DNA from: Escherichia coli
GTDB taxonomy: Bacteria > Pseudomonadota > Gammaproteobacteria > Enterobacterales > Enterobacteriaceae
Direction: 5' to 3' (one strand)
Length of the DNA: 64,000 nucleotides
NCBI RefSeq assembly: GCF_003790525.1
Contig: NZ_CP033635.1
Part shown: positions 736-44,269 of the stretch, piece after piece
How the letters are laid out: each line of letters opens with the position of its first letter
How positions within the stretch are numbered: the first letter of the stretch is position 1
Made by a program: the position numbers and the translations under genes
The notes under the pieces: model-generated
Database searches by the model: none
The model's input: only the letters and a program-made list of their open reading frames with translations
Told to the model about the DNA's origin: nothing

Positions 736-1239
736 TCAGATTTTGTCCTGCCCAAGCGACAACTGCGTTAGCCACAGCCGGGTGTCGAACTCAAGCTGGT
801 GGTACTGCGGCTCCATATGGCAGCACAATTGATAGAACGCTTTGTTATGCTCTTTCTCCTTCAGGTGCGCCAACTCGTGCACCACGATCATGCGCAAAAA
901 CGGTTCCGGCGCGTTGCGAAACACGGTAGCGACGCGGATCTCCGCCTTTGCTTTCAGCTTGCCGCCCTGCACACGCGAAACAGCGGTATGTAACCCGAGC
1001 GCATTTTTCAGCACATGGATCTTGTTGTCATACATCACTTTATTGATCGGCGGGGCATTGCGCAGAAACTGATTTTTAAGATCCTGAGTATATTGCCAGA
1101 GGGCTTTATCGGTGGCGTAGTCGTGTGTTCCCGGATAGCGTTTTGCCAGCACATCGCCCAGACGCTGTTCGTTAATCAGCGTTCGCACCTGGGAAAGTAG
1201 CTGCTCGGGATAACCCTGAAGATAAGTAAGATTGCTCAT
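736..1239 (-). CDS. ygjP: Metal-dependent hydrolase YgjP (WLM/UTP pyrophosphatase family)
   Basis: Track ORF 736..1275; internal start [15 protein letters not shown] gives 167 aa; HELAHLKE zinc-hydrolase-like motif. Confidence 0.8.
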
Positions 1240-1323
1240 AACCGCCCACGAAAAAGAGAAAAAGGGTATACTCACGCACCCTTTTCAGGGGCAACGTCGA
1301 AATTTTATCATTCAGGAGGGCCG

Positions 1324-2460
1324 ATGAGCCACTTAGACAACGGTTTCCGTTCACTGACACTACAACGTTTTCCGGCGACGGATGACGTTAACCCGCTACA
1401 GGCGTGGGAAGCGGCGGATGAATATTTGCTGCAACAGTTGGACGACACAGAAATCCGCGGCCCGGTGTTGATCCTGAATGATGCCTTTGGTGCGTTAAGT
1501 TGTGCGCTGGCGGAACATAAGCCGTACAGCATTGGCGACTCATACATCAGTGAACTGGCCACGCGCGAGAATTTACGCCTCAACGGGATTGATGAATCGA
1601 GCGTGAAGTTTCTCGACAGCACCGCCGACTACCCGCAACAGCCGGGCGTGGTACTGATCAAAGTACCGAAAACACTGGCGTTGCTGGAACAACAACTGCG
1701 TGCGCTGCGCAAAGTGGTCACGCCGGATACACGTATTATTGCCGGTGCTAAAGCCCGTGACATTCACACCTCCACGCTGGAACTGTTCGAAAAAGTGCTC
1801 GGTCCGACCACCACCACACTGGCATGGAAGAAAGCGCGCCTGATTAACTGCACTTTCAACGAGCCGCCGCTGGTTGATGCACCGCAGACCGTTAGCTGGA
1901 AGCTGGAAGGTACTGACTGGACTATCCACAACCATGCGAATGTCTTCTCCCGCACCGGGCTGGATATTGGCGCGCGCTTCTTTATGCAGCATCTGCCAGA
2001 GAATCTCGAAGGTGAGATTGTCGATCTCGGTTGTGGTAATGGCGTTATTGGTCTGACGCTGCTTGATAAAAACCCGCAGGCGAAAGTGGTGTTTGTCGAT
2101 GAATCGCCGATGGCGGTTGCTTCCAGCCGTTTGAACGTTGAAACCAACATGCCAGAGGCGTTGGATCGCTGCGAGTTTATGATTAACAACGCGCTCTCCG
2201 GCGTGGAGCCTTTCCGCTTTAATGCTGTGCTCTGCAACCCGCCGTTTCATCAGCAACATGCGCTGACCGATAACGTCGCCTGGGAGATGTTCCACCACGC
2301 CCGCCGCTGTCTGAAAATCAACGGCGAGCTGTATATCGTTGCCAACCGTCACCTGGATTACTTCCACAAACTGAAGAAAATTTTCGGCAACTGCACCACC
2401 ATCGCCACGAATAATAAATTTGTGGTGCTGAAAGCAGTGAAGCTGGGGCGTCGTCGGTAA
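1324..2460 (+). CDS. rlmG: 23S rRNA m2G1835 methyltransferase RlmG
   Basis: 378-aa ORF; NPPFH methyltransferase motif and DLGCGNG SAM-binding motif; position between ygjP and fadH. Confidence 0.9.
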
Positions 2461-2577
2461 GATTGGCAGCTACCTGCCAGATAAGGCGTAAACGCCTTAT
2501 CTGGCATACGTTCAGCACATTACCCCCAGGTCGGATAAGACGCGGCAAGCGTCGCATCCGGCACTTCAATGCACAAT
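2461..2577. repeat. REP-like palindromic units in the rlmG-fadH intergenic region
   Basis: gccagataaggcgtaaacgccttatctggc and gtcggataagacgcggcaagcgtcgcatccggcac imperfect palindromes of the REP type. Confidence 0.5.
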
Positions 2578-4623
<2,046 letters not shown>

Positions 4624-4766
4624 TTATGTGGTCGGATGAGTTCTAATTTAGCCGTCGCCGGAGAAAAGGGAAAAGGGGAGTGCGGGGTTTGTGATGGGAT
4701 TCAAAAAGAATACGCCCGTTCGTCATGCCGGACGGCGGTAATACAGTCGTCCGGCATCGGGAAAAA

Positions 4767-14713
<9,947 letters not shown>

Positions 14714-20448: not shown

Positions 20449-21765
20449 ATGGCCGTCAATCTTACTGAAACAGCCATCCGAGCATTGAAAGCAAAAAAGA
20501 CATCGTTCTATGTCTGGAGCAACAGCTCTCAACGTGGCACTGGACGACTTGGTGTCAAAGTTCAGCCTTCTGGCAGCAAGATTTTCTATTTCCGCTATTA
20601 CGTGGAAAAAGGGAAAAAAGAAAGATTCATTCAATTGGGTATATGGCCTGAGATGAAACTGGCCACAGCGAATGAACTGACAAAAAAGTATGGTGCCTGG
20701 CTCATTGAAGGAAAGGATCCCCAGGCAGAACTGGAACGACAACAGTTTGCAGAACAGCAGCGGATACAACTCCATCAATCACAGGGCTCATTTGAAGCAT
20801 TGATTCATGGTTATGTTAACAAAATGAAAATTGATAATAAGAGGACATGGCAGGATGTTCTGAAACGCCTTGAAAATGAATGCTATACAGTGATCCCCCG
20901 TGAAACTAAAGCTAAAGATGTGACTTCCGGACAGATTAAACATATCCTGGCCGGGATCATTCAGCGCGGTGCTGTGGTTCACTCTAACCGGATCCGTTCT
21001 TACCTGATGGCTGCATTTAACTATGGACTGAAAGCAGATAACGATCCGATGAACACAAGTGTAGGGATTACTTTTGGGCTGGAGGCAAATCCGGTGTCAG
21101 TGATACCGAAACAGTCATCTGCTGAAAAAGTCGGTGATACCTGGCTGACACTTGAAGAGTTGCGTTTTCTAATGGAACATTTTGCTGAAGCAACCAACGT
21201 TGGATTATTGATGCAACATTTGATCCGATTCTGTATCTATACCGGAGGGCAACGTCCTTTCGAAATGATCGCCAGTCAGTGGTGTGATGTTGATTTTCAA
21301 CAAAAAACGCTGCTGGTGACTGCTGATGTCTCTAAAAATAAACGAGAGCATTTGATACCGTTGACTGAATCAGCATTACAGGAATTATCCTGTGTGCAGG
21401 AGTTAACAAAAGAAAAATCCAGCCCTTACATTTTTCCACTTTCGACTAATGGTAAGCGTCCGGTTCGTACGGACAGTCTGGCTCGCGCTATCATGTATTT
21501 CCGGGCTTTTAATCCTGACTTTAAAATTTTTACAGCACGTGACTTACGTCGGACCTGTAAAACGTTAATGGGAGAAGCTGGGATCAGTAAGGAAATCCGC
21601 GATCGTATTCAAAATCATGCGTTGAACGATGTCAGTTCAAAACATTATGATCGATACGATTATTTGCCAGAAAAACGCAGAGCACTTGAGATCTGGGAGG
21701 ACCGGGTTAATAACTATCAACAGCAAACAGGCAATAATGTTGTCAATCTGTTTGGCAGAAGGTGA
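20449..21765 (+). CDS. P4-type tyrosine integrase
   Basis: 438-aa ORF; C-terminal catalytic region with R...HxxR...Y arrangement (ARDLRRTCKTLM, HALNDVSSKHYDRYDY); directly adjacent to the tRNA fragment. Confidence 0.9.
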   Translation: MAVNLTETAIRALKAKKTSFYVWSNSSQRGTGRLGVKVQPSGSKIFYFRYYVEKGKKERFIQLGIWPEMKLATANELTKKYGAWLIEGKDPQAELERQQFAEQQRIQLHQSQGSFEALIHGYVNKMKIDNKRTWQDVLKRLENECYTVIPRETKAKDVTSGQIKHILAGIIQRGAVVHSNRIRSYLMAAFNYGLKADNDPMNTSVGITFGLEANPVSVIPKQSSAEKVGDTWLTLEELRFLMEHFAEATNVGLLMQHLIRFCIYTGGQRPFEMIASQWCDVDFQQKTLLVTADVSKNKREHLIPLTESALQELSCVQELTKEKSSPYIFPLSTNGKRPVRTDSLARAIMYFRAFNPDFKIFTARDLRRTCKTLMGEAGISKEIRDRIQNHALNDVSSKHYDRYDYLPEKRRALEIWEDRVNNYQQQTGNNVVNLFGRR

Positions 21766-26776: not shown

Positions 26777-26970
26777 CATTTTATAGTCCTTGTAGCTATT
26801 GGCAATGGAGTTATAAATACATGTGCGTTGGATAGGTAATATATATTATATCTGTGATGTATAGTATATGTGTAATGATGGATATGATGTACTAATAGAG
26901 CTAATGGTATTCTGATACCAAATAATTAGTTGTGTGTAGATCATAACTCTGTTTAATGTTTTAGAACGTT

Positions 26971-27011
26971 CTAATGTAACTGTGTAACATCATCCTGTTC
27001 TCTAATGTAAC
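26971..27011. repeat. Direct repeats ctaatgtaac (x2, 31 bp apart) upstream of the Gp2-like gene
   Basis: ctaatgtaac at 26971-26980 and 27002-27011, with a related tgtgtaac between them. Confidence 0.35.
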
Positions 27012-27157
27012 AATAGGCAGTAGCGTTTTTCTTAATTGACGCCCAGAGGGTTATATATCCCTCTGGGAACTACTGATACGAATATTAATATCTGCTTCTG
27101 TTGTGTATTGGGTAGGTTAACTATTAGCTTATCTCTGAAAGCAAAAGGAATATTAAC

Positions 27158-27772
27158 ATGATTACGATTGAAACTCTTTACGGTGAATGTCATGAGGCTC
27201 ACGGGTTAAAAATAAGAAACCAGGTGAATAACCTCTTCCAGAAACATCCCAGAATAACGGCAATACGGGTGGATCTCCATTATCCTCCCGTGATTGACAA
27301 CGGGGATACCATTACCTGTTTTCCTAACCTGAGTCCCGGAGAGATATCTCGTTTCCGTAACTCGCTGAATGCGAAAATTAATGCAGATCAACACCGTAAA
27401 AAACAACAAGGCAAACGCACCTACGCAACGTCGGTTTGTATTATCTGGGCGAAAGAATATACGCAGTCCTTTAAATGTCATTATCACGTCTGCCTTTTTT
27501 TTAACAAAGACGCCTATTACCACCTGGGAGACTATGAGCGCTCTGACACCCTGAGAGGGTTAATTACCGGAGCCTGGTACAGTGCCTTAGGGTTAGAACT
27601 GGAAGATCACCAGGGACTAGTTCATTTCCCTGCTAATGGACGTTACATCCTGGATATTAACGATCCTGATTTCCCTGAGCAATATCAGCGCTTATTGGCA
27701 CGTCTGGATTATCTGACGAAGCTCGACACTAAAGCATCAGGCCAGCGTAACTTTGGCTACAGCGGTTTTTGA
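27158..27772 (+). CDS. Inovirus Gp2-like / YagK-YfjJ family protein with HUH motif
   Basis: 204-aa ORF; HYHVCLFF (HUH-like) and conserved HPRITAIRVDLHYP block typical of the YagK/YfjJ prophage family. Confidence 0.5.
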   Translation: MITIETLYGECHEAHGLKIRNQVNNLFQKHPRITAIRVDLHYPPVIDNGDTITCFPNLSPGEISRFRNSLNAKINADQHRKKQQGKRTYATSVCIIWAKEYTQSFKCHYHVCLFFNKDAYYHLGDYERSDTLRGLITGAWYSALGLELEDHQGLVHFPANGRYILDINDPDFPEQYQRLLARLDYLTKLDTKASGQRNFGYSGF

Positions 27773-27799
27773 CCTATTGTAACTGTAAGGTGATTTATT

Positions 27800-28366
27800 A
27801 TGTATACAGAATCAAACGTTAAGCTTTCCTGTAACGCCCTCTGGCAAAAGTATGTCCTTGCAACTCTGTATCGGGCTGCAGCTACACATCCTAAAATTAA
27901 ATTATTACAATTTAAATTAATACCTTGCCCAGGTATGAACAAGGCAATTCCCTCTCTGATGGCTGATTTTACTGGTGAACTGCATAGACTAATTTCTGAA
28001 TATTTGCAGTGCAAGCGACGTAAAGATAAATCTGTTGAGCCCGCCCCTTTATATTATCTCTGGAGTAGGGAAGCTGTGGCTAACGATACCACTCCTTATC
28101 TTATGGTACTGCTACTTAATAACGATGTCTGGTGTAAGAGTCGTGAGGTGGTGGCTCTCAGAAATCTGATTGAGCAGGCGTGGGGAAAAGTATTGGACGA
28201 AGATAACTCCATTACACATCAGGTTGTGTATCCTGAAGTGCTGTCGTTGGTATTTGATGCAGCTAACACATACAACGCTGAGCCTGGTGTACTGGAACAG
28301 ACGGCCCAGGCTTACATTGAATCGCATGGTGCCATTGAACGTCATCTTGGGTGTAGTGACTTTTAA
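27800..28366 (+). CDS. Paralogue of the upstream Gp2-like protein (HUH motif degenerate)
   Basis: 188-aa ORF; N-terminus HPKIKLLQFKLIPCP parallels HPRITAIRVDLHYPP of the neighbour; the HYHV position reads PYLMV. Confidence 0.4.
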   Translation: MYTESNVKLSCNALWQKYVLATLYRAAATHPKIKLLQFKLIPCPGMNKAIPSLMADFTGELHRLISEYLQCKRRKDKSVEPAPLYYLWSREAVANDTTPYLMVLLLNNDVWCKSREVVALRNLIEQAWGKVLDEDNSITHQVVYPEVLSLVFDAANTYNAEPGVLEQTAQAYIESHGAIERHLGCSDF

Positions 28367-28440
28367 CGACGTCAGGTGATGCATAAGGGCCTTTCGCTGA
28401 GAGGCCCTGTTTACACAATTAAATAAGTCGAACCCGACCA

Positions 28441-28561
28441 GCAATTTTGACGTTGACGGCAGGATTATTGAGGGGCAATCAATGTGTTCTTCGGCAGCGA
28501 TTACGGTAGTGAACGGACCTGCTGTCTGAATGGTATCGATCCGCAAGCGTATCTGCGCCAT
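28441..28561 (+). mobile_element. Short IS66-family transposase (TnpC C-terminal) remnant, truncated by IS2
   Basis: Translates to ...SERTCCLNGIDPQAYLR, resembling the conserved LNGxDPxAYL motif near the C-terminus of IS66 TnpC; abuts the IS2 end at 28562. Confidence 0.35.
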
Positions 28562-29650
28562 TGGATTTGCCCCTATATTTCCAGACACCTGTTATCACTT
28601 AACCCATTACTGGCCCGCTGCCGTAGATATTCCCGTGGCGAGCGATAACCCAGTGCACTATGCGGATGCCATTCGTTATAATGCTCGAACGCCTCTGCAA
28701 GGTTCTTTGCTGCCGTTAACCCGTCTGGTTTGGGCATGATACTGATGTAATCACGCTTTATCGTTTTCACGAAGCTCTCTGCTATGCCGTTACTCTCCGG
28801 ACTCCGCACCGCCGTGTTCTTCGGTTCAAGTCCCAGCATCCGGGCGAACTGGCGTGTTTCATTAGCCCGGTAGCATGAACCATTATCCGTCAGCCACTCC
28901 ACTGGAGATGTCGGAAGCTCGCTGCCGAAGCGGCGTTCCACCGCTCCCAGCATGACGTCCTGTACTGTTTCACTGTCGAAGCCGCCCGTAGTGACCGCCC
29001 AGTGCAGTGCCTCACGGTCACAGCAGTCCAGCGCGAACGTGACCCCCAGTTTTTCTCCGTTATCACAGCGGAACTCGAACCCGTCAGAGCACCATCGTTG
29101 ATTGCTTTCTTTCACGGCCACTTTGCCAGTATGTGCCCGTTTCGATGGCGGTACAGCGGTTTTTCGCTCAAGCAACAGCGCATTCTGGCGCATGATCCGG
29201 TAAACACGTTTGGCATTGATAGCAGGCATACCATCAAGTTCGGCCTGTCTGCGAAGCAGCGCCCATACCCGACGATAACCATACGTGGGCAGCTCTCCGA
29301 TAACATGGTGTATACGGAGAAGCACATCCGTATCATCTGAGTGACGGCTGCGGCGACCATCTTTCCAGTCATCGGTTCGTCTGAGAATGACGTGCAACTG
29401 CGCACGCGACACCCGGAGACAACGGCTGACTAAGCTTACTCCCCATCCCCGGGCAACAAGGGAGACCGTCATTCCCGGTTCAAAGCTCTGCTGAACAATA
29501 GCGATCTTTTCCTGTGTAGTACGCCGTCTGCGTTTCTCCGGCCCTAAGACATCAATCATCTGTTCTCCAATGACTAGTCTAGAAACTAGTATTAAGACTA
29601 TCACTTATTTAAGTGATATTGATTGTCTGGAGATTCAGGGGGCCAGTCTA
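28562..29650 (-). mobile_element. IS2 copy with a ~242-bp internal deletion (1089 bp against ~1331 bp expected)
   Basis: IS2 terminal sequences at both ends (tggatttgcccctatatttccagaca at 28562; complement of tagactggccccctgaatctccagacaa ending at 29650). Confidence 0.75.
28573..29559 (-). CDS. IS2 transposase, in-frame InsC(N-terminal 37 aa)-InsD fusion created by the internal deletion
   Basis: [37 protein letters not shown] (InsC HTH start) runs directly into [20 protein letters not shown]... (InsD) through to ...NRCLEI; DDE region intact. Confidence 0.7.
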
Positions 29651-29984
29651 TATATCAATTAATCATTAGTTTAAAAGCTTGTTCAACTGCATACATCATT
29701 AGCGTTTAAGCCAGTGAACAGGAAGTTTACTGGCTTAATTACAGTAATATAGTGTATCGCTATGCTCACTGAGTCTTAGATCTCCACCGTCGGTCTAATA
29801 TTCGCACTCCTGCTAACAACCGGTAATCAAATCGTCCTCCGGTATTGAAAGTTAATACACAAATCAGGATGATGGAGGCTCATACTGGTACAGCGCGACC
29901 ACTTATGCAGGCGTCTCTGTCAGGTTTGTTGCCCGGATCACCCGCATCAGGGACAGGGCTGTTCAGTTATCCGCAGGAGAAAAT

Positions 29985-30995
29985 ATGTCACTCAAGGCTA
30001 TCGCCGCCGAACTCGGGATCTCTGTCACCACAGTCAGCCGGGCGCTTGGCGGATTTTCGGACGTTTCCGCTTCGACCCGTGCACGTGTAGAAGCGGAAGC
30101 TCGGCGTCGTGGTTATCGCCCGAATACCCTGGCAAGACGTCTCAAAACCGGTAAAACCGATGCGGTCGGCCTGGTCTTCCCTGAACATGCTGTACTGTTC
30201 AGCAGTAGTGTGTTTGTGGATATGGTCAGTTGTATCAGCCGGGAACTGGTCCGCCATGATATTGACTTACTGCTGATAGCCGATGATGAACGGGCTGACA
30301 GCCACAGCTATATGCGTCTGGTCGAAAGCCGCCGGGTTGATGCCCTTATCGTGGCGCACACGATGGATAATGACCCGCGTCTTACACACCTGCAGGAGGC
30401 CGGTATTCCGTTTCTGGCACTCGGTCAGGTGCCGTCCGGTCTTCCCTGTGCCTGGTTTGACTTTGATAACCATGCAGGAACCTGGCAGGCCACACAGCAC
30501 CTGATTGCCCTGGGCCATCAGCGAATTGCCCTGCTGAGTGAGGACAACTCCCGTGCCTATGTCACTGCACGACGTCAGGGATGGCGCGATGCCCTGAGTG
30601 AACATGGTCTGCCTGAGACCTGGCTACGCCGGGTCTCTCCCACCCGACGCTCAGGTTTCCAGGCAGTGACTGAGTTAATGTCACTTCCGCTTCCCCCGAC
30701 GGCCATTATTACCGACAGTGACCTGATCGGTGATGGCGCGGCCATGTCGCTGCAGTTATCCGGTCATCTGTCCGGAGAGGATGCCGTCTCTCTTGTGGTT
30801 TATGATGGTCTGCCGCAGGACAGTATTATTGAACAGGATGTGGCTGCAGTTCTTCAGTCAACACGACATCGCGTCGGTCGTCAGATTGCCGACATGATAC
30901 GCCAGCTGGTCACGAATGTTTCACCTGAAATGCTACAAGTACTCTGGCAGCCGGAATTTCATCCTGGCAAGACAACGCTTGCTCCCTCCGCCTGA
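29985..30995 (+). CDS. rafR: LacI-family repressor, RafR-like
   Basis: 336-aa ORF; N-terminal HTH MSLKAIAAELGISVTTVSRAL; immediately upstream of the alpha-galactosidase gene. Confidence 0.65.
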   Translation: MSLKAIAAELGISVTTVSRALGGFSDVSASTRARVEAEARRRGYRPNTLARRLKTGKTDAVGLVFPEHAVLFSSSVFVDMVSCISRELVRHDIDLLLIADDERADSHSYMRLVESRRVDALIVAHTMDNDPRLTHLQEAGIPFLALGQVPSGLPCAWFDFDNHAGTWQATQHLIALGHQRIALLSEDNSRAYVTARRQGWRDALSEHGLPETWLRRVSPTRRSGFQAVTELMSLPLPPTAIITDSDLIGDGAAMSLQLSGHLSGEDAVSLVVYDGLPQDSIIEQDVAAVLQSTRHRVGRQIADMIRQLVTNVSPEMLQVLWQPEFHPGKTTLAPSA

Positions 30996-31088
30996 TTTTT
31001 AATCCCGCTCACAAATTCGAATCGTTTCGGTTGCTATCCGAAACGATTCGGATCAACAGTAAGGCATACCCGAAAACGGAGATGTCTT

Positions 31089-33215
31089 ATGGAACCGATG
31101 TACCGCAGGCTGACCAGTCCCCACTCAGACCTGATTATTAAAACCCACCCGTATGCAGAGATTGTCTGGTGGGGATCCACCCTGAAACACTTTTCACCGG
31201 ATGACTGTATCAGCCTGGAAAGGCCGGTTGCGAATGGTCGTCTGGATACCGACACCCCACTGACGCTGATGGCCGAAAACGGCGCGGGACTTTTTGGCTC
31301 GCCGGGGCTGGAGGGACACCGCAACGGGCTGGATGCGTCCCCTGTGTTCCGTACCATCAGCGTGGTACAGGCCGGAGAATCACTCACCCTGACCAGTGAG
31401 GATGCAGTGGCGGGTCTGCGCATGGTCAGTGAACTGGTGCTGACATCGTCCGGTGTGCTGAAGATGCGTCATGCCCTGACGAACCTCCGTGAAGGGGACT
31501 GGCAGGTGAACCGCTTCGCCATCACGCTCCCTGTGGCTGAAAGGGCAGAGGAAGTCATGGCCTTCCACGGACGCTGGACTCGTGAGTTTCAGCCGCACAG
31601 GGTCCGTCTCACACATGACGGTTTTGTGCTGGAGAACCGCCGGGGCCGCACGTCCCATGAGCATTTTCCGGCACTGATTGCCGGTGCCCCCGGTTTCTCA
31701 GAACAGCAGGGCGAGGTGTGGGCCGTACATCTGGGCTGGAGTGGCAACCATCGCATGAAATGTGAGGTCAAAACTGACGGACGGCGTTACCTCCAGGCGG
31801 AAGCACTGTGGATGCCCGGAGAAAAAGCCCTGAAGAAGGATGAGACCGTGTACACGCCGTGGCTGTACGCCAGCTATTCCCCGGAGGGGCTCAATGGTAT
31901 GAGTCAGCAGTACCACCGTTTTCTGCGCGATGAAATCATCCGTTTTCCTGAGCAGAAACCCCGTCCGGTGCACCTCAATACCTGGGAAGGTATTTATTTT
32001 GACCACGACCCGAACTACATCATGCAGATGGCCGGACGTGCGGCAGCGCTTGGCGTTGAACGTTTCATTATCGACGACGGCTGGTTTAAGGGACGCAATG
32101 ATGACCATGCGGCTCTGGGCGACTGGTATCTGGATGAACAGAAGTATCCGGACGGACTGATGCCGGTGATTAACCATGTGAAATCACTCGGCATGGAGTT
32201 CGGTATCTGGGTGGAACCGGAAATGATTAACCCGGACTCTGACCTCTTTCGCCGCCATCCTGACTGGGTACTGTCAATGCCGGGGTACACACAACCAACC
32301 GGGAGACATCAGTATGTTCTCAACCTGAACATTCCTGAGGCCTTTGCTTACATTTATGAACGCTGTTTATGGCTGCTGGGCGAACACCCAGTTGACTATG
32401 TGAAATGGGACATGAACCGCGAGCTGGTCCAGGCCGGGCATGAAGGTCGGGCGGCGGCGGACGCGCAGACCCGTCAGTTTTACCGGCTGCTGGATCTCCT
32501 GCGCGAACGTTTTCCCCGTGTTGAGTTTGAGTCCTGCGCTTCCGGCGGTGGACGTATCGACTTTGAGGTTCTGACCCGCACGCACCGCTTCTGGGCTTCT
32601 GACAACAATGACGCCCTGGAGCGCTGCACCATACAGCGTGGCATGAGTTACTTTTTCCCGCCGGAGGTTATGGGGGCACACATCGGTCATCATCGCTGCC
32701 ATGCCACCTTCCGGCAGCACAGCATTGCCTTTCGCGGTCTGACGGCCCTGTTCGGTCATATGGGACTGGAGCTGGATCCGGTAACGGCCGGAGAAGAGGA
32801 ATCCGCCGGTTACCGCCGCTATGCCTCGCTCTACAAAGAATGGCGGCAGCTTATCCACACGGGCACCCTATGGCGGGTGGATATGCCGGATGCGGCGACA
32901 CAGGTGCAGGGGGTGGTCAGCCCGGATCAGTCGCAGGCGCTCTTCCTGGTGAGCCAGCTTGCCATGCCGGATCACACCCTGCCGGGTGCTCTACGTTTTC
33001 CGGGGCTGGCACCACAGGCCCGTTACCGGCTTCGTGTTGTTGACCATCCGGATATTCAGCTGGTCGGTGAAGGCGGGCATACCATGCGCAGGCTGCCCGG
33101 CTGGATGAACCAGACCTCCGACATCAGTGGGGAATGGCTGGCGCAGGCCGGTATTCAGCTTCCCGTACTGGATCCGGAAAGCGCCATGCTGATTGCCCTT
33201 GAACGTTTGGCATAA
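31089..33215 (+). CDS. rafA: Alpha-galactosidase RafA (GH36)
   Basis: 708-aa ORF; GH36 motifs (DDGWF, KWDMN, CASGGGR). Confidence 0.8.
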   Translation: MEPMYRRLTSPHSDLIIKTHPYAEIVWWGSTLKHFSPDDCISLERPVANGRLDTDTPLTLMAENGAGLFGSPGLEGHRNGLDASPVFRTISVVQAGESLTLTSEDAVAGLRMVSELVLTSSGVLKMRHALTNLREGDWQVNRFAITLPVAERAEEVMAFHGRWTREFQPHRVRLTHDGFVLENRRGRTSHEHFPALIAGAPGFSEQQGEVWAVHLGWSGNHRMKCEVKTDGRRYLQAEALWMPGEKALKKDETVYTPWLYASYSPEGLNGMSQQYHRFLRDEIIRFPEQKPRPVHLNTWEGIYFDHDPNYIMQMAGRAAALGVERFIIDDGWFKGRNDDHAALGDWYLDEQKYPDGLMPVINHVKSLGMEFGIWVEPEMINPDSDLFRRHPDWVLSMPGYTQPTGRHQYVLNLNIPEAFAYIYERCLWLLGEHPVDYVKWDMNRELVQAGHEGRAAADAQTRQFYRLLDLLRERFPRVEFESCASGGGRIDFEVLTRTHRFWASDNNDALERCTIQRGMSYFFPPEVMGAHIGHHRCHATFRQHSIAFRGLTALFGHMGLELDPVTAGEEESAGYRRYASLYKEWRQLIHTGTLWRVDMPDAATQVQGVVSPDQSQALFLVSQLAMPDHTLPGALRFPGLAPQARYRLRVVDHPDIQLVGEGGHTMRRLPGWMNQTSDISGEWLAQAGIQLPVLDPESAMLIALERLA

Positions 33216-33269
33216 AAGGACCGGAGCCGGTCACGGCTCCCTGCACTCAGTCCCGTGAGGATAACAATA

Positions 33270-34547
33270 ATGAATACTGTCAGTACTCATAAAAACCCCG
33301 ATTTCTGGATATTTGGTCTGTTCTTTTTTCTCTACTTTTTCATCATGGCAACCTGTTTCCCGTTTCTGCCCGTCTGGCTGTCAGACATTGTGGGGCTGAG
33401 TAAAACGGATACCGGGATTGTTTTTTCATGCCTCTCCCTGTTTGCCATCAGCTTCCAGCCGCTGCTGGGGGTCATCTCAGACCGTCTTGGCCTGAAAAAA
33501 CACCTGATGTGGATCATCAGCCTGCTGCTGGTCCTGTTTGCACCGTTCTTTCTGTACGTTTTTGCGCCGCTGCTGCGGTTCAACATCTGGGCCGGAGCAC
33601 TGAGCGGCGGGATTTTTATCGGCTTCGTTTTTTCTGCGGGAGCCGGTGCCATCGAAGCCTATATTGAACGTGTCAGCCGCAGCAGCGGATTTGAATACGG
33701 TAAGGCCCGGATGTTCGGCTGTCTGGGCTGGGCGCTGTGTGCCACCACGGCAGGGCTGCTTTTCAACGTGGATCCGTCCCTGGTATTCTGGATGGGGTCC
33801 GGCTGCGCATTGCTGCTGGTCCTTCTGGTGGCGCTGGCGCGTCCCGGAACCAGTCAGACAGCGATGGTCATGAATGCGCTGGGTGCCAACTCGCCCGTGA
33901 TTTCCGCCGGAATGGTGTTCAGTCTGTTTCGTATGCGTCAGATGTGGATGTTCGTGCTTTACATGATTGGGGTGGCCTGCGTCTATGACGTGTTTGACCA
34001 GCAGTTTGCCACGTTCTTCCGTGCATTTTTTGACACGCCGCAGGCGGGGATCCGGGCATTTGGTTTTGCCACCACGGCTGGCGAGATTTGCAATGCCATC
34101 ATCATGTTCTGCTCCCCCTGGATAATCAACCGCATTGGTGCCAAAAACACACTGCTTGTCGCGGGTCTGATTATGACCATCCGCATCACAGGGTCGGCCT
34201 TTGCCACCACGGCTACTGAAGTGGTGATCCTGAAAATGCTGCATGCCCTTGAAGTCCCATTCCTGCTGGTTGGTGCGTTCAAGTATATCACCGGCGTGTT
34301 TGATACCCGGCTGTCGGCCACCATTTATCTGATTGGCTTTCAGTTCTCCAAACAACTGGCGGCGATATTCCTCTCAACCTTTGCAGGTCACCTGTATGAC
34401 CGCATGGGGTTCCAGAACACCTATCTGGTTCTGGGCGGTATTGTCCTTGCGGTCACCGTGTTATCGGCTTTCACCCTGAGCAGTACCCGTAAAACGGCTG
34501 CCCCGTCAGCAGAAACCGCTACAGCACAGACGGAGGTTCGCTTATGA
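33270..34547 (+). CDS. rafB: Raffinose/oligosaccharide:H+ symporter RafB (LacY family, MFS)
   Basis: Track ORF from 33255 (GTG); ATG at 33270 with GAGGA RBS; 12-TM hydrophobic profile; LacY-like N-terminus (NPDFWIFGLFFFLYFFIM). Confidence 0.8.
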   Translation: MNTVSTHKNPDFWIFGLFFFLYFFIMATCFPFLPVWLSDIVGLSKTDTGIVFSCLSLFAISFQPLLGVISDRLGLKKHLMWIISLLLVLFAPFFLYVFAPLLRFNIWAGALSGGIFIGFVFSAGAGAIEAYIERVSRSSGFEYGKARMFGCLGWALCATTAGLLFNVDPSLVFWMGSGCALLLVLLVALARPGTSQTAMVMNALGANSPVISAGMVFSLFRMRQMWMFVLYMIGVACVYDVFDQQFATFFRAFFDTPQAGIRAFGFATTAGEICNAIIMFCSPWIINRIGAKNTLLVAGLIMTIRITGSAFATTATEVVILKMLHALEVPFLLVGAFKYITGVFDTRLSATIYLIGFQFSKQLAAIFLSTFAGHLYDRMGFQNTYLVLGGIVLAVTVLSAFTLSSTRKTAAPSAETATAQTEVRL

Positions 34548-35974
34548 AACAGCGTCTTGTCTCTGCACAGGTTGCACTTGATACACTCCGCGCCCGTCGT
34601 GGTGATACCTGGTACCCGGTTTTTCATCTGGCTCCACCTGCCGGATGGATGAATGATCCGAACGGGCTTATTTATTTCAGCGGTCGCTATCACGCATTCT
34701 TTCAGCACCATCCGGCAAGTGAACATCAGGGGCCGATGCACTGGGGACATGCCACCAGTCCGGACATGCTGCACTGGCAGCATGAGCCGGTTGCGCTGGC
34801 ACCCGGTGATGAATATGACCGGGATGGCTGTTTTTCCGGCAGCGCAGTGGACGACAACGGCGTGCTGTCGCTTATCTACACCGGTCATCTCTGTCTGGAG
34901 GATCGGGGGGATGACAGCATCATCCGCGAAGTCCAGTGTCTGGCAACCAGCCGTGACGGCATTCACTTTGAGAAACAGGGCTGCGTGCTGACGCCACCGG
35001 AAGGCATCATGCATTTCCGTGACCCGAAGGTCTGGCGGGAAGGGGGATACTGGTGGATGGTTATCGGCGCGCGGGATACCTCTGACACCGGTCAGGTGCT
35101 GCTGTATCGCGGCACATCCCTGCGGGACTGGCGCCAGGAACGGGTTCTAGCGCAGTCGGCAGCCGGAGAAAGCTATATGTGGGAATGTCCGGACTTTTTC
35201 CGCTGTGGCGACCATCACTGGCTGATGTTCTCCCCGCAGGGGATGACGCCCGGCGGATACCGGTTCCGCAACCGCTTTCAGAGCGGAGTTTTACCGGGTC
35301 ACTGGCAGCCGGGGGCCGCCTTTGCCCTGAGCGGGGCATTTGAAGAACTGGATCACGGTCATGATTTTTATGCCCCGCAGTCCCTGGTCGCGGAGGACGG
35401 ACGGCGCATCATCATGGCCTGGATGAATATGTGGGACTCCCCGATGCCTACAAAGCGTGAGGCCTGGGCCGGATGTCTGACCCTGCCGAGGGAACTTTTT
35501 GAACGCCATGGTCGTCTGTGTCAGCGTCCGGTTCGCGAAGCCGAATCCCTTCGCGGGACGTGCCAGCCGTTACACCCTGTAAGGCTCAGTGGCACGCAGT
35601 TGCTGGCTGAGGACGCACAGGCCGTGGAACTGGTGCTGACGTGGCATACCCTCGACAGTCAGGCAGAGCATTACGGCATCCACCTGGGAGACGGGCTCCG
35701 GCTGTATGTGGATAACCAGGCAGGACGGCTGGTGCTTTGGCGTCACTACCCGGATGAGGGGCTGGACGGTTACCGCAGTATCGCGCTGCCTGGCGCAGAA
35801 TATCTGACGCTACGGGTTTTCCTGGACCGTTCATCGGTGGAAGTGTTCGTTAACGATGGCGATGCCACCCTGTCCAGCCGTATTTACCCGCAGCCCGGAA
35901 CCCGCCGGTTGTCGCTATATGCAGCTCACGGCGAGGCTGTGCTGACGGACGGCTCACTGTGGACGCTGGCCTGA
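34544..35974 (+). CDS. rafD: GH32 sucrose/raffinose hydrolase (invertase), RafD-like
   Basis: 476-aa ORF; GH32 N-terminal WMNDPNG motif plus RDP and EC motifs; 4-bp overlap with rafB stop. Confidence 0.75.
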   Translation: MKQRLVSAQVALDTLRARRGDTWYPVFHLAPPAGWMNDPNGLIYFSGRYHAFFQHHPASEHQGPMHWGHATSPDMLHWQHEPVALAPGDEYDRDGCFSGSAVDDNGVLSLIYTGHLCLEDRGDDSIIREVQCLATSRDGIHFEKQGCVLTPPEGIMHFRDPKVWREGGYWWMVIGARDTSDTGQVLLYRGTSLRDWRQERVLAQSAAGESYMWECPDFFRCGDHHWLMFSPQGMTPGGYRFRNRFQSGVLPGHWQPGAAFALSGAFEELDHGHDFYAPQSLVAEDGRRIIMAWMNMWDSPMPTKREAWAGCLTLPRELFERHGRLCQRPVREAESLRGTCQPLHPVRLSGTQLLAEDAQAVELVLTWHTLDSQAEHYGIHLGDGLRLYVDNQAGRLVLWRHYPDEGLDGYRSIALPGAEYLTLRVFLDRSSVEVFVNDGDATLSSRIYPQPGTRRLSLYAAHGEAVLTDGSLWTLA

Positions 35975-40716: not shown

Positions 40717-41511
40717 TGAGCCGCCCCGGGAATCCTGGAGACTAAACTCCCTGAGAAAGAGGTAAACAGAATGACTAAAAATACTCGTTTTTCCCCCGAA
40801 GTCCGTCAGAGGGCGATTCGTATGGTTCTGGAAAGTCAGGGCGAATATGACTCACAGTGGGCGGCAATTTGTTCCATTGCCCCAAAGATTGGCTGTACAC
40901 CGGAGACTCTGCGTGTCTGGGTGCGCCAGCATGAGCGGGATACCGGAGGCGGTGATGGCGGGCTCACCACCGCTGAACGTCAGCGTCTGAAAGAGCTGGA
41001 ACGTGAAAATCGTGAACTGCGCCGCAGTAACGATATCCTTCGCCAGGCTTCCGCTTATTTTGCGAAGGTGGAGTTCGACCGCCTCTGGAAAAAGTGATGC
41101 CACTGCTGGATAAGCTGCGTAAGCTGTACGGGGTCGGACCGGTATGCAGTGAACTACATATTGCCCCGTCAACGTATTACCACTGTCAGCAACAGCGACA
41201 TCATCCTGATAAACGCAGTGCCCGTGCGCAGCGCGATGACTGGCTGAAGAAAGAGATACTGCGCGTATACGATGGGAATCATCAGGTATACGGTGTGCGT
41301 AAAGTCTGGCGTCAGTTGTTACGGGAAGGAATCAGGGTAGCCAGATGTACAGTGGCGCGCCTCATGGCGGTTATGGGACTTGCCGGTGTTCTCCGGGGTA
41401 AAAAGGTCCGCACTACCGTCAGCCGGAAAGCCGTTGCCGCAGGCGACCGCGTAAACCGTCAGTTTGTGGCAGAACGTCCTGACCAGTTGTGGGTGGCTGA
41501 TTTTACTTACG
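40717..41511 (+). mobile_element. IS3-family element (IS629/IS1203-like) 5' part: left IR, orfA and orfB N-terminal section, ending at the group II intron
   Basis: Left end tgagccgccccgggaatcctggagac; orfA 40771..41097 ([26 protein letters not shown]...), orfB from 41094 reading ...QLWVADFTY up to 41511. Confidence 0.65.
40771..41097 (+). CDS. IS3-family transposase OrfA (HTH/leucine-zipper subunit)
   Basis: 108-aa ORF; conserved IS3-family orfA; 4-bp overlap with the orfB start. Confidence 0.75.

Positions 41512-44269
<2,758 letters not shown>

Follow-up and report, generated by a model that had tools for sequence, protein, structure and literature searches.

Internally deleted, non-autonomous derivatives of insertion sequences are MITE-like elements: they keep both ends, and the transposase that moves them must be supplied in trans. 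Within the IS3 family, the full-length element closest to the locus described here is IS2, whose left and right ends (IRL and IRR) have been characterized, IRR being the exclusive donor end (PMC3219604). The end-binding domain of its transposase, OrfAB, covers residues 13-58 and consists of helix 1 (13-26), helix 2 (32-38), a turn (39-42) and helix 3 (43-58) (Lewis et al. 2011, PMC3219604). A leucine zipper (LZ)-like motif at residues 73-100 serves oligomerization (PMC3219604). When single residues of helix 3 or of the LZ-like motif are substituted, DNA binding and/or transposition is lost or strongly reduced; with W49R, it is transposition alone that is lost (PMC3219604).

Here, we describe an IS2 deletion derivative of 1089 bp that has both termini intact and lies on the minus strand at 28562-29650 of the window, by which we mean the whole stretch of Escherichia coli DNA that was analysed (64 000 nucleotides). 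The element and its parts are as follows.

28562-29650, minus strand: IS2-delta242, the deleted IS2 copy, from alignment to full-length IS2 and the BLAST pieces 1-202 and 431-1331.
29609-29650, minus strand: IRL, ~42 bp, outer dinucleotide TA, starting TAGACTGG; its extent is taken from the literature and its terminus is that of the full-length copy.
28562-28602, minus strand: IRR, 41 bp, ending ...GGGGCAAATCCA, from the alignment, with the 41-bp length from PMC3219604.
29449-29456, minus strand: deletion junction, with one kept copy of the 8-bp repeat TTGCCCGG, from the alignment and BLAST.
28573-29559, minus strand: 328-aa fusion ORF, from translation, residue mapping, Pfam, NCBIfam and RefSeq WP_001354443.1.

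As the alignment reference we used the 1331-bp IS2 on plasmid pSTEC174, which was picked by similarity search. Against this copy, the window element shows six substitutions and a single gap, which is exactly 242 bp long; outside the gap, its identity to full-length IS2 is 99.4%. The initial annotation, made from the letters of the window, had described a 1089-bp IS2 with an internal deletion of ~242 bp; the pairwise alignment bears this out, places the deletion at IS2 nt 195-436 and rules out a full-length IS2. BLAST recovers IS2 nt 1-202 and 431-1331 in the window element at 99.3-99.5% identity, as two pieces that overlap by 14 nt (29449-29462), and finds 28562-29650 to be the sole IS2 sequence in the 64-kb window. 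IRL reads TAGACTGGCCCCC... from 29650 (the minus-strand left end is also given as TAGACTGGCCCCCTGAATCTCC...), IRR ends at 28562, and both termini are identical in the alignment to those of the full-length copy. The nearest full-length copy is separated from the deleted one by one non-synonymous and two synonymous changes only.

IS2 contains the 8-bp sequence TTGCCCGG twice in direct orientation, at nt 195 and again at nt 437, and the missing segment lies between these repeats. These can be extended to CCCTTgTTGCCCGG and CCCTTaTTGCCCGG, which match at 13 of 14 positions. Such a short-direct-repeat signature would fit an origin by slippage or illegitimate recombination, and the 242-bp loss may represent one event of illegitimate recombination or replication slippage between the 8-bp repeats. 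Both the A6G slippery site (nt 409) and the GTG start of insD (nt 415) fall inside the deleted segment. At the protein level, the repeats encode SLVAR and ALIAR, each then followed by x-x-G-V; these are the ...L-V/I-A-R ends of two similar HTH-like stretches (SLVAR-QHGV and ALIAR-GWGV), and the 29-residue stretches share seven identities. Because the repeats encode the ends of two similar HTH-like stretches, the insC frame runs from residue 37 into InsD and two similar motifs are joined.

Since 242 = 3 x 80 + 2, the insC frame carries on into insD. This is the hard-wired, in-frame InsC'-InsD fusion that had been deduced from a deletion of 3n+2 nucleotides, and the translation of the ORF agrees with it. 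The programmed -1 frameshift with its two overlapping ORFs (orfA/insC and orfB/insD) is absent, and a single 328-aa ORF is found instead: the long ORF spans 28573-29604, with an ATG at 29559 and its stop at 28573, and the translation begins MIDVLGPEK. The loss of the InsC-only regulator, also proposed in the initial annotation, follows as well, a separate InsC product being impossible from the fused ORF. For comparison we reconstructed a native OrfAB of 409 aa. The fusion joins InsC residues 1-37 in frame to InsD from G11, which amounts to OrfAB minus residues 38-118 (81 residues), and otherwise differs only by R253G (OrfAB numbering), a lineage-specific change.

The fusion is without the turn and recognition helix of the HTH (39-58) and without the whole LZ-like motif (73-100), and the end-binding domain (H+HTH, 13-58) is incomplete, residues 38-58 being gone. 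The fusion retains the first two helices of the DNA-binding bundle, the HTH_21 region and the DDE core, in which the triad is intact (D159, D225 and E261 in the fusion, equivalent to D240, D306 and E342 in OrfAB). Pfam models reflect this pattern. HTH_21, rve (E 1e-18) and rve_3 (E 4e-18) match the fusion as they match native OrfAB, whereas the HTH_Tnp_1 match shrinks from model positions 2-74 of 75 in native OrfAB (E 5e-18) to positions 2-36 in the fusion (E 3e-5). With NCBIfam, the fusion scores 688 bits against ‘IS2 transposase TnpB’ (cut-off 597) and 75 bits against ‘IS2 repressor TnpA’, far under its cut-off of 229, and the general IS3 transposase model matches the fusion from position 98 only. 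The exact protein (WP_001354443.1) is named only ‘IS3 family transposase’, the label under which annotation pipelines call the ORF intact despite two missing activity modules.

Two further analyses gave little. AlphaFold2, run without alignments on the fusion and on native OrfAB, returned a mean pLDDT of 36-37, which is unusable on the folding of the chimeric HTH. Scanning 28400-30000 for consensus promoters gave no match within IRL on the minus strand; this result is uninformative because the IS2 promoter is of the weak, extended -10 type (PMC3219604).

The surroundings of the element are very different on its two sides. Beyond IRL, the following features were identified.

29651-29984, no strand assigned: invariant flank from IRL to rafR, with the junction ...TTGATATA followed directly by IS2 in nearly all copies, from sequence comparison of the copies.
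29985-35974, plus strand: raf cluster, always on the IRL side, from ORFs, Pfam families of identical neighbours and RefSeq annotation.
29985-30995, plus strand: rafR-like LacI repressor, from ORFs, Pfam and RefSeq.
31089-33215, plus strand: GH36 alpha-galactosidase, from ORFs, Pfam and RefSeq.
To 34547, plus strand: LacY-type permease, from ORFs, Pfam and RefSeq.
34544-35974, plus strand: GH32 hydrolase, from ORFs, Pfam and RefSeq.

The order of repressor, GH36, permease and GH32 is the organization of the raf (raffinose) operon. The IRL junction stands 334 bp upstream of the LacI-type repressor gene. The cluster is part of a genomic island with a tyrosine integrase at 20449-21765 of the window, and the sites of this island differ: it lies beside nfeF in the window arrangement, whereas strain DAX4 has it at ssrA and strain 2452 has it near ycdU (the three chromosomal positions come from loci L004, L019 and L020). 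As the island occupies different chromosomal sites, the deleted IS2 spreads by hitch-hiking. ARAGORN found no tRNA or tmRNA gene in the 64-kb window, and an attachment site is not obvious. Every context that we read retains the raf flank, a type A or B IRR flank (described below) or both, with the exception of two metagenome contigs.

Some other features are worth recording. Downstream of raf, at ~40770-44260 of the window (34272-37762 of L020), lies an IS3-family element with an annotated AL1L frameshift pseudoknot; it is split by a group II intron that carries ltrA (ORF 42333-43691), and an IS1414 fragment adjoins. Two adjacent ORFs of the YagK/YfjJ type (inovirus Gp2 family) are present at 27158-28366, between the putative IS66 remnant and the rest of the island backbone; in the 101 genomes of the window arrangement, both they and the IRR flank of IS2 are conserved. 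Plasmid pGF43-A (L005, NZ_CP172128.1) has a different full-length IS2-group element of 1337 bp at 4041-5377, which is found on some raf plasmids. It has the same raf-flank junction (...TTGATATA followed by T..., compare 29651 of the window) and the same orientation, and its identity to IS2 is ~65-70% along most of the element and ~96% in the last 140 bp. The presence of two distinct elements at one raf junction suggests IR-targeted insertion or replacement by recombination.

On the other side of the element, IRR abuts what is probably the remnant of another insertion sequence.

28484-28561, plus strand: putative C-terminal remnant of an IS66-family tnpC (VFFGSDYGSER..TCCLNGIDPQAYLRH), cut by the IS2 IRR, from tblastn.

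The initial annotation had pointed to a truncated IS66-family tnpC at this place, and tblastn with IS66 TnpC points the same way, through a match that is weak and comes from a tiny database (E=2e-4, 38% identity over 37 aa). It had also seen no matching 5-bp duplication and had proposed an adjacent deletion. Both points stand: with ATATA beside IRL and ATGGC beside IRR, the window copy has no 5-bp duplication, and a sister allele, type D (L015), which shares the IS2 and the raf junction of the window, keeps 96 more bp between IRR and ATGGCGCAG. These 96 bp continue the tnpC homology and finish in an IS66-type terminal repeat; this terminal part of tnpC and the IS66 end, which the window lacks, can be seen in both the type D and the KOL-1 allele. 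The window allele is type D minus 96 bp, cut exactly at the IS2 terminus, and represents an adjacent deletion. Type D likewise has no target duplication, so an earlier event is hidden as well.

Across the copies, five different sequences abut IRR at its exact terminus, which we call types A (the window), B, C (L002), D (L015) and E (metagenome contig L021). In type B, found in 51 genomes, the island contains phoH-pgaDCBA-dgcT a second time, as a divergent copy, and IRR lies 90 bp upstream of it. The two phoH-pgaDCBA-dgcT copies of L019 (NZ_CP031833.1), at 1006-10005 and 26963-35929, are allelically divergent; the second copy of type B ends at an IS5 and the native copy is ~25 kb away and inverted, chromosomal DNA having been captured beside the IS2 right end. 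Because all five IRR alleles carry the internal deletion, the rearrangements post-date it. The junctions could come from the trans-acting transposase of full-length copies or from recombination with other IS2 copies, between which the data do not discriminate.

Strain CM IVRI KOL-1 (L006, NZ_CP033158.1) has no IS2 at this locus, and 120 bp separate its raf flank from ATGGCGCAG. We considered this allele as a simple empty site and rejected it: the 120 bp are only ~50-60% like type D while the next stretch is ~97% identical, which marks a recombinant allele and not the state before insertion. At 4040-4160 of this sequence the raf flank is joined to 46 bp and an intact IS66-type end, and the sharp recombination breakpoint is at ATGGCGCAG, the very base where the window IS2 IRR abuts.

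To follow the deleted form through genome collections, we used a 40-mer across the deletion as the junction probe; it cannot seed on full-length IS2. Of 5426 complete E. coli genomes, 249 contain the junction 40-mer. Its 258 places are all on chromosomes, and the number per genome has a median of one and does not exceed three. In the same collection, IS2 overall is found in 4839 genomes, with a median of three and up to 41 places per genome. A probe for the junction of IRL and its flank is fully matched in 235 genomes, and both window flanks are common to 101. Among the best 30 chromosomes listed, the deleted copy is the sole IS2-like sequence in 11 and is still single-copy. Extra places number nine for the junction probe and eight for the IRL-raf probe; this near equality suggests duplicated raf modules and not new insertions. 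In the multi-copy strain DAX4, no second deleted copy was found within 20 kb of the first.

Outside the complete genomes, the exact fusion protein is present on at least 1000 contigs of a large collection, and the junction probe is present in two records only of the plasmid collection. Three 30-nt plasmid matches of the probe appear to come from variants of full-length IS2 whose second repeat has an A>G change, and not from deletions. The species-representative genomes, scanned with the junction 40-mer, gave no match. The deletion allele is of single origin. A search of the literature for rafR with IS2, for WP_001354443 or for a raffinose genomic island at ssrA found nothing; the element is already in the databases, yet undescribed in the literature that was searched.

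A scan of metagenomes with the junction probe yielded four contigs, two of them raf-linked. On contig L023 (ENA ORUM01011601, human gut), the deleted IS2 lies at 700-1788 on the reverse strand, downstream of ilvN, and is bounded by a perfect 5-bp duplication, ACGAT; it is the only such deleted copy that we found. In 1198 complete genomes, the empty site that we reconstructed, which has ACGAT once only, occurs without interruption, and none of the complete genomes has any IS2 at this site. Coverage of this contig is 1.4x and its SNPs form a mosaic, so that an assembly chimera is possible. The L023 copy looks like a real IS2 insertion, and it may be weak evidence for rare mobilization in trans. 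A further contig, L024, was rejected as a transposed or independent deleted copy. It ends inside the IS and is probably an assembly chimera: over its first ~110 nt the SNPs match the resident full-length copy, and beyond that they match the raf-linked lineage. At this place, complete plasmids carry IS2 in full length.

Our preferred reading, which we hold with good confidence, is of a defective copy of IS2 that has a single origin, does not move by itself and stays at the edge of the raf cluster as a neutral passenger. With the turn, helix 3 and the whole LZ-like motif missing, and without a frameshift site or a separate InsC, the fusion would be expected to be unable to bind IS2 ends or to form synaptic complexes. 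The element would then persist beside the raf genes and spread with the integrase-bearing island. Its intact ends would still be substrates, either for recombination with other IS2 copies or for transposase provided in trans by full-length copies, and either route would explain the deletion together with rearrangements exactly at IRR. Two observations sit less easily with a passive passenger: the duplication-flanked L023 copy, by which a deleted copy may have transposed at least once, and the five IRR junctions, which put the right end in repeated rearrangements after the deletion and leave the acting protein unspecified. These same observations, namely a deleted copy with its duplication at a normally empty site and junctions that vary exactly at the terminus, can be turned into the stronger proposal of a still-mobile non-autonomous element, whose protein is dead and whose intact ends are mobilized in trans at a frequency that matters. 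These ends do not differ from those of full-length copies, and a full-length IS2 is co-resident in many carriers (9 kb off in DAX4, for example). Chromosomal IS2 copies let null IS2 constructs transpose at background level (PMC3219604), which makes trans mobilization plausible. We nevertheless consider the proposal unlikely, since there is one such contig only, at 1.4x and with mosaic SNPs, no complete genome has an IS2 at that site, L024 looks like an assembly chimera, and nine extra places against eight extra raf-IRL junctions in 249 genomes point to duplicated raf modules.

The remaining explanations give the fusion protein a role, or deny the deletion. The initial annotation had suggested that the fusion ‘might give constitutive transposase’, an unregulated and active enzyme released by the loss of the frameshift and of InsC. 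It is true that the frame fusion is real, that A6G is gone and an InsC-only product impossible, that the DDE triad is intact, and that an engineered frame-fused IS2 (A7G) yields OrfAB as its main product (PMC3219604). However, the A7G fusion retains the residues that are missing here (38-118, including the recognition helix and the LZ-like motif) and is therefore not a valid analogue; point mutants in either module lose DNA binding, transposition or both (PMC3219604), and the Pfam and NCBIfam models confirm the loss of the modules. An unregulated active transposase should also have amplified, and the deleted copy has not: it stands at ~1.04 copies per genome, even where it is the sole IS2-like sequence in the chromosome. 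The missing residues and the copy number contradict a deregulated transposase, which we regard as very improbable. In short, the observation and the structural interpretation in the initial annotation were right, and the functional speculation was not. It is highly unlikely, too, that the junction rebuilds a working chimeric HTH from helix 2 of InsC and the turn and helix of the HTH-like stretch at the start of InsD, with an unregulated fusion driving IRR-initiated, one-ended events as the source of the five IRR junctions and the L023 copy. The HTH-like sequence that the junction recreates might allow some residual DNA binding, and if this idea were true, the element would encode an IS3-family transposase that is hard-wired by nature and needs no leucine zipper to work. 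That the fusion has been domesticated, or is kept as a dominant-negative protein that modulates IS2 activity or serves another host function, is extremely improbable. All copies read have an intact ORF (identical at 1086-1089 of 1089 positions) and the exact protein is on at least 1000 contigs, but such near-identity, with few changes relative to the nearest full-length copy, speaks of recent spread and not of demonstrable selection, the constant linkage to the raf island lets hitch-hiking explain the frequency, and the fusion is without the LZ-like motif used for protein interaction in the IS3 family (PMC3219604). Finally, we give practically no credence to a sequencing or assembly artefact with no real deletion behind it. 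IS elements are often mis-assembled, and nothing more specific speaks for this explanation; it is already refuted by the same junction in 249 independently closed genomes and by RefSeq WP_001354443.1. Hundreds of complete genomes have the identical 1089-bp element, which excludes an assembly error.

Seen as a neutral passenger, the element is an ordinary decayed insertion sequence of little mechanistic import. Its 40-nt junction is a clean single-origin marker of the raf-carrying island, which it tags in ~4.6% of complete E. coli genomes. Additionally, the alleles that differ exactly at IRR provide natural material on IS2 right ends, adjacent deletions and the capture of chromosomal DNA.

With MITE-like derivatives, the element shares intact terminal repeats, a disabled transposase gene and possible mobilization in trans (L023). 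It differs from them in that only 18% of the element is missing, a long ORF is left and there is about one copy per genome, without evidence of amplification. With the wild-type 1331-bp IS2 (IS3 family, IS2 group), it has in common IRL, IRR, the start of insC, the ribosome-binding region and the InsD/DDE core; it is 242 bp shorter and is without the A6G window, separate InsC and InsD products, the recognition helix, the LZ-like motif and the 5-bp duplication. The published OrfAB point mutants (S44N, L58I, L97H and others) are hit in the same two modules that are missing here and lose IR binding and/or transposition (PMC3219604). Those are single substitutions that were assayed experimentally, whereas here the sequence shows the modules to be deleted outright. 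The engineered A7G IS2 of Lewis and co-workers (PMC3219604) likewise has a single orfA-orfB ORF that needs no ribosomal frameshifting. The engineered fusion has all 409-410 residues and is active, whereas the natural fusion is without 81 residues, which comprise most of the HTH and the whole oligomerization motif.
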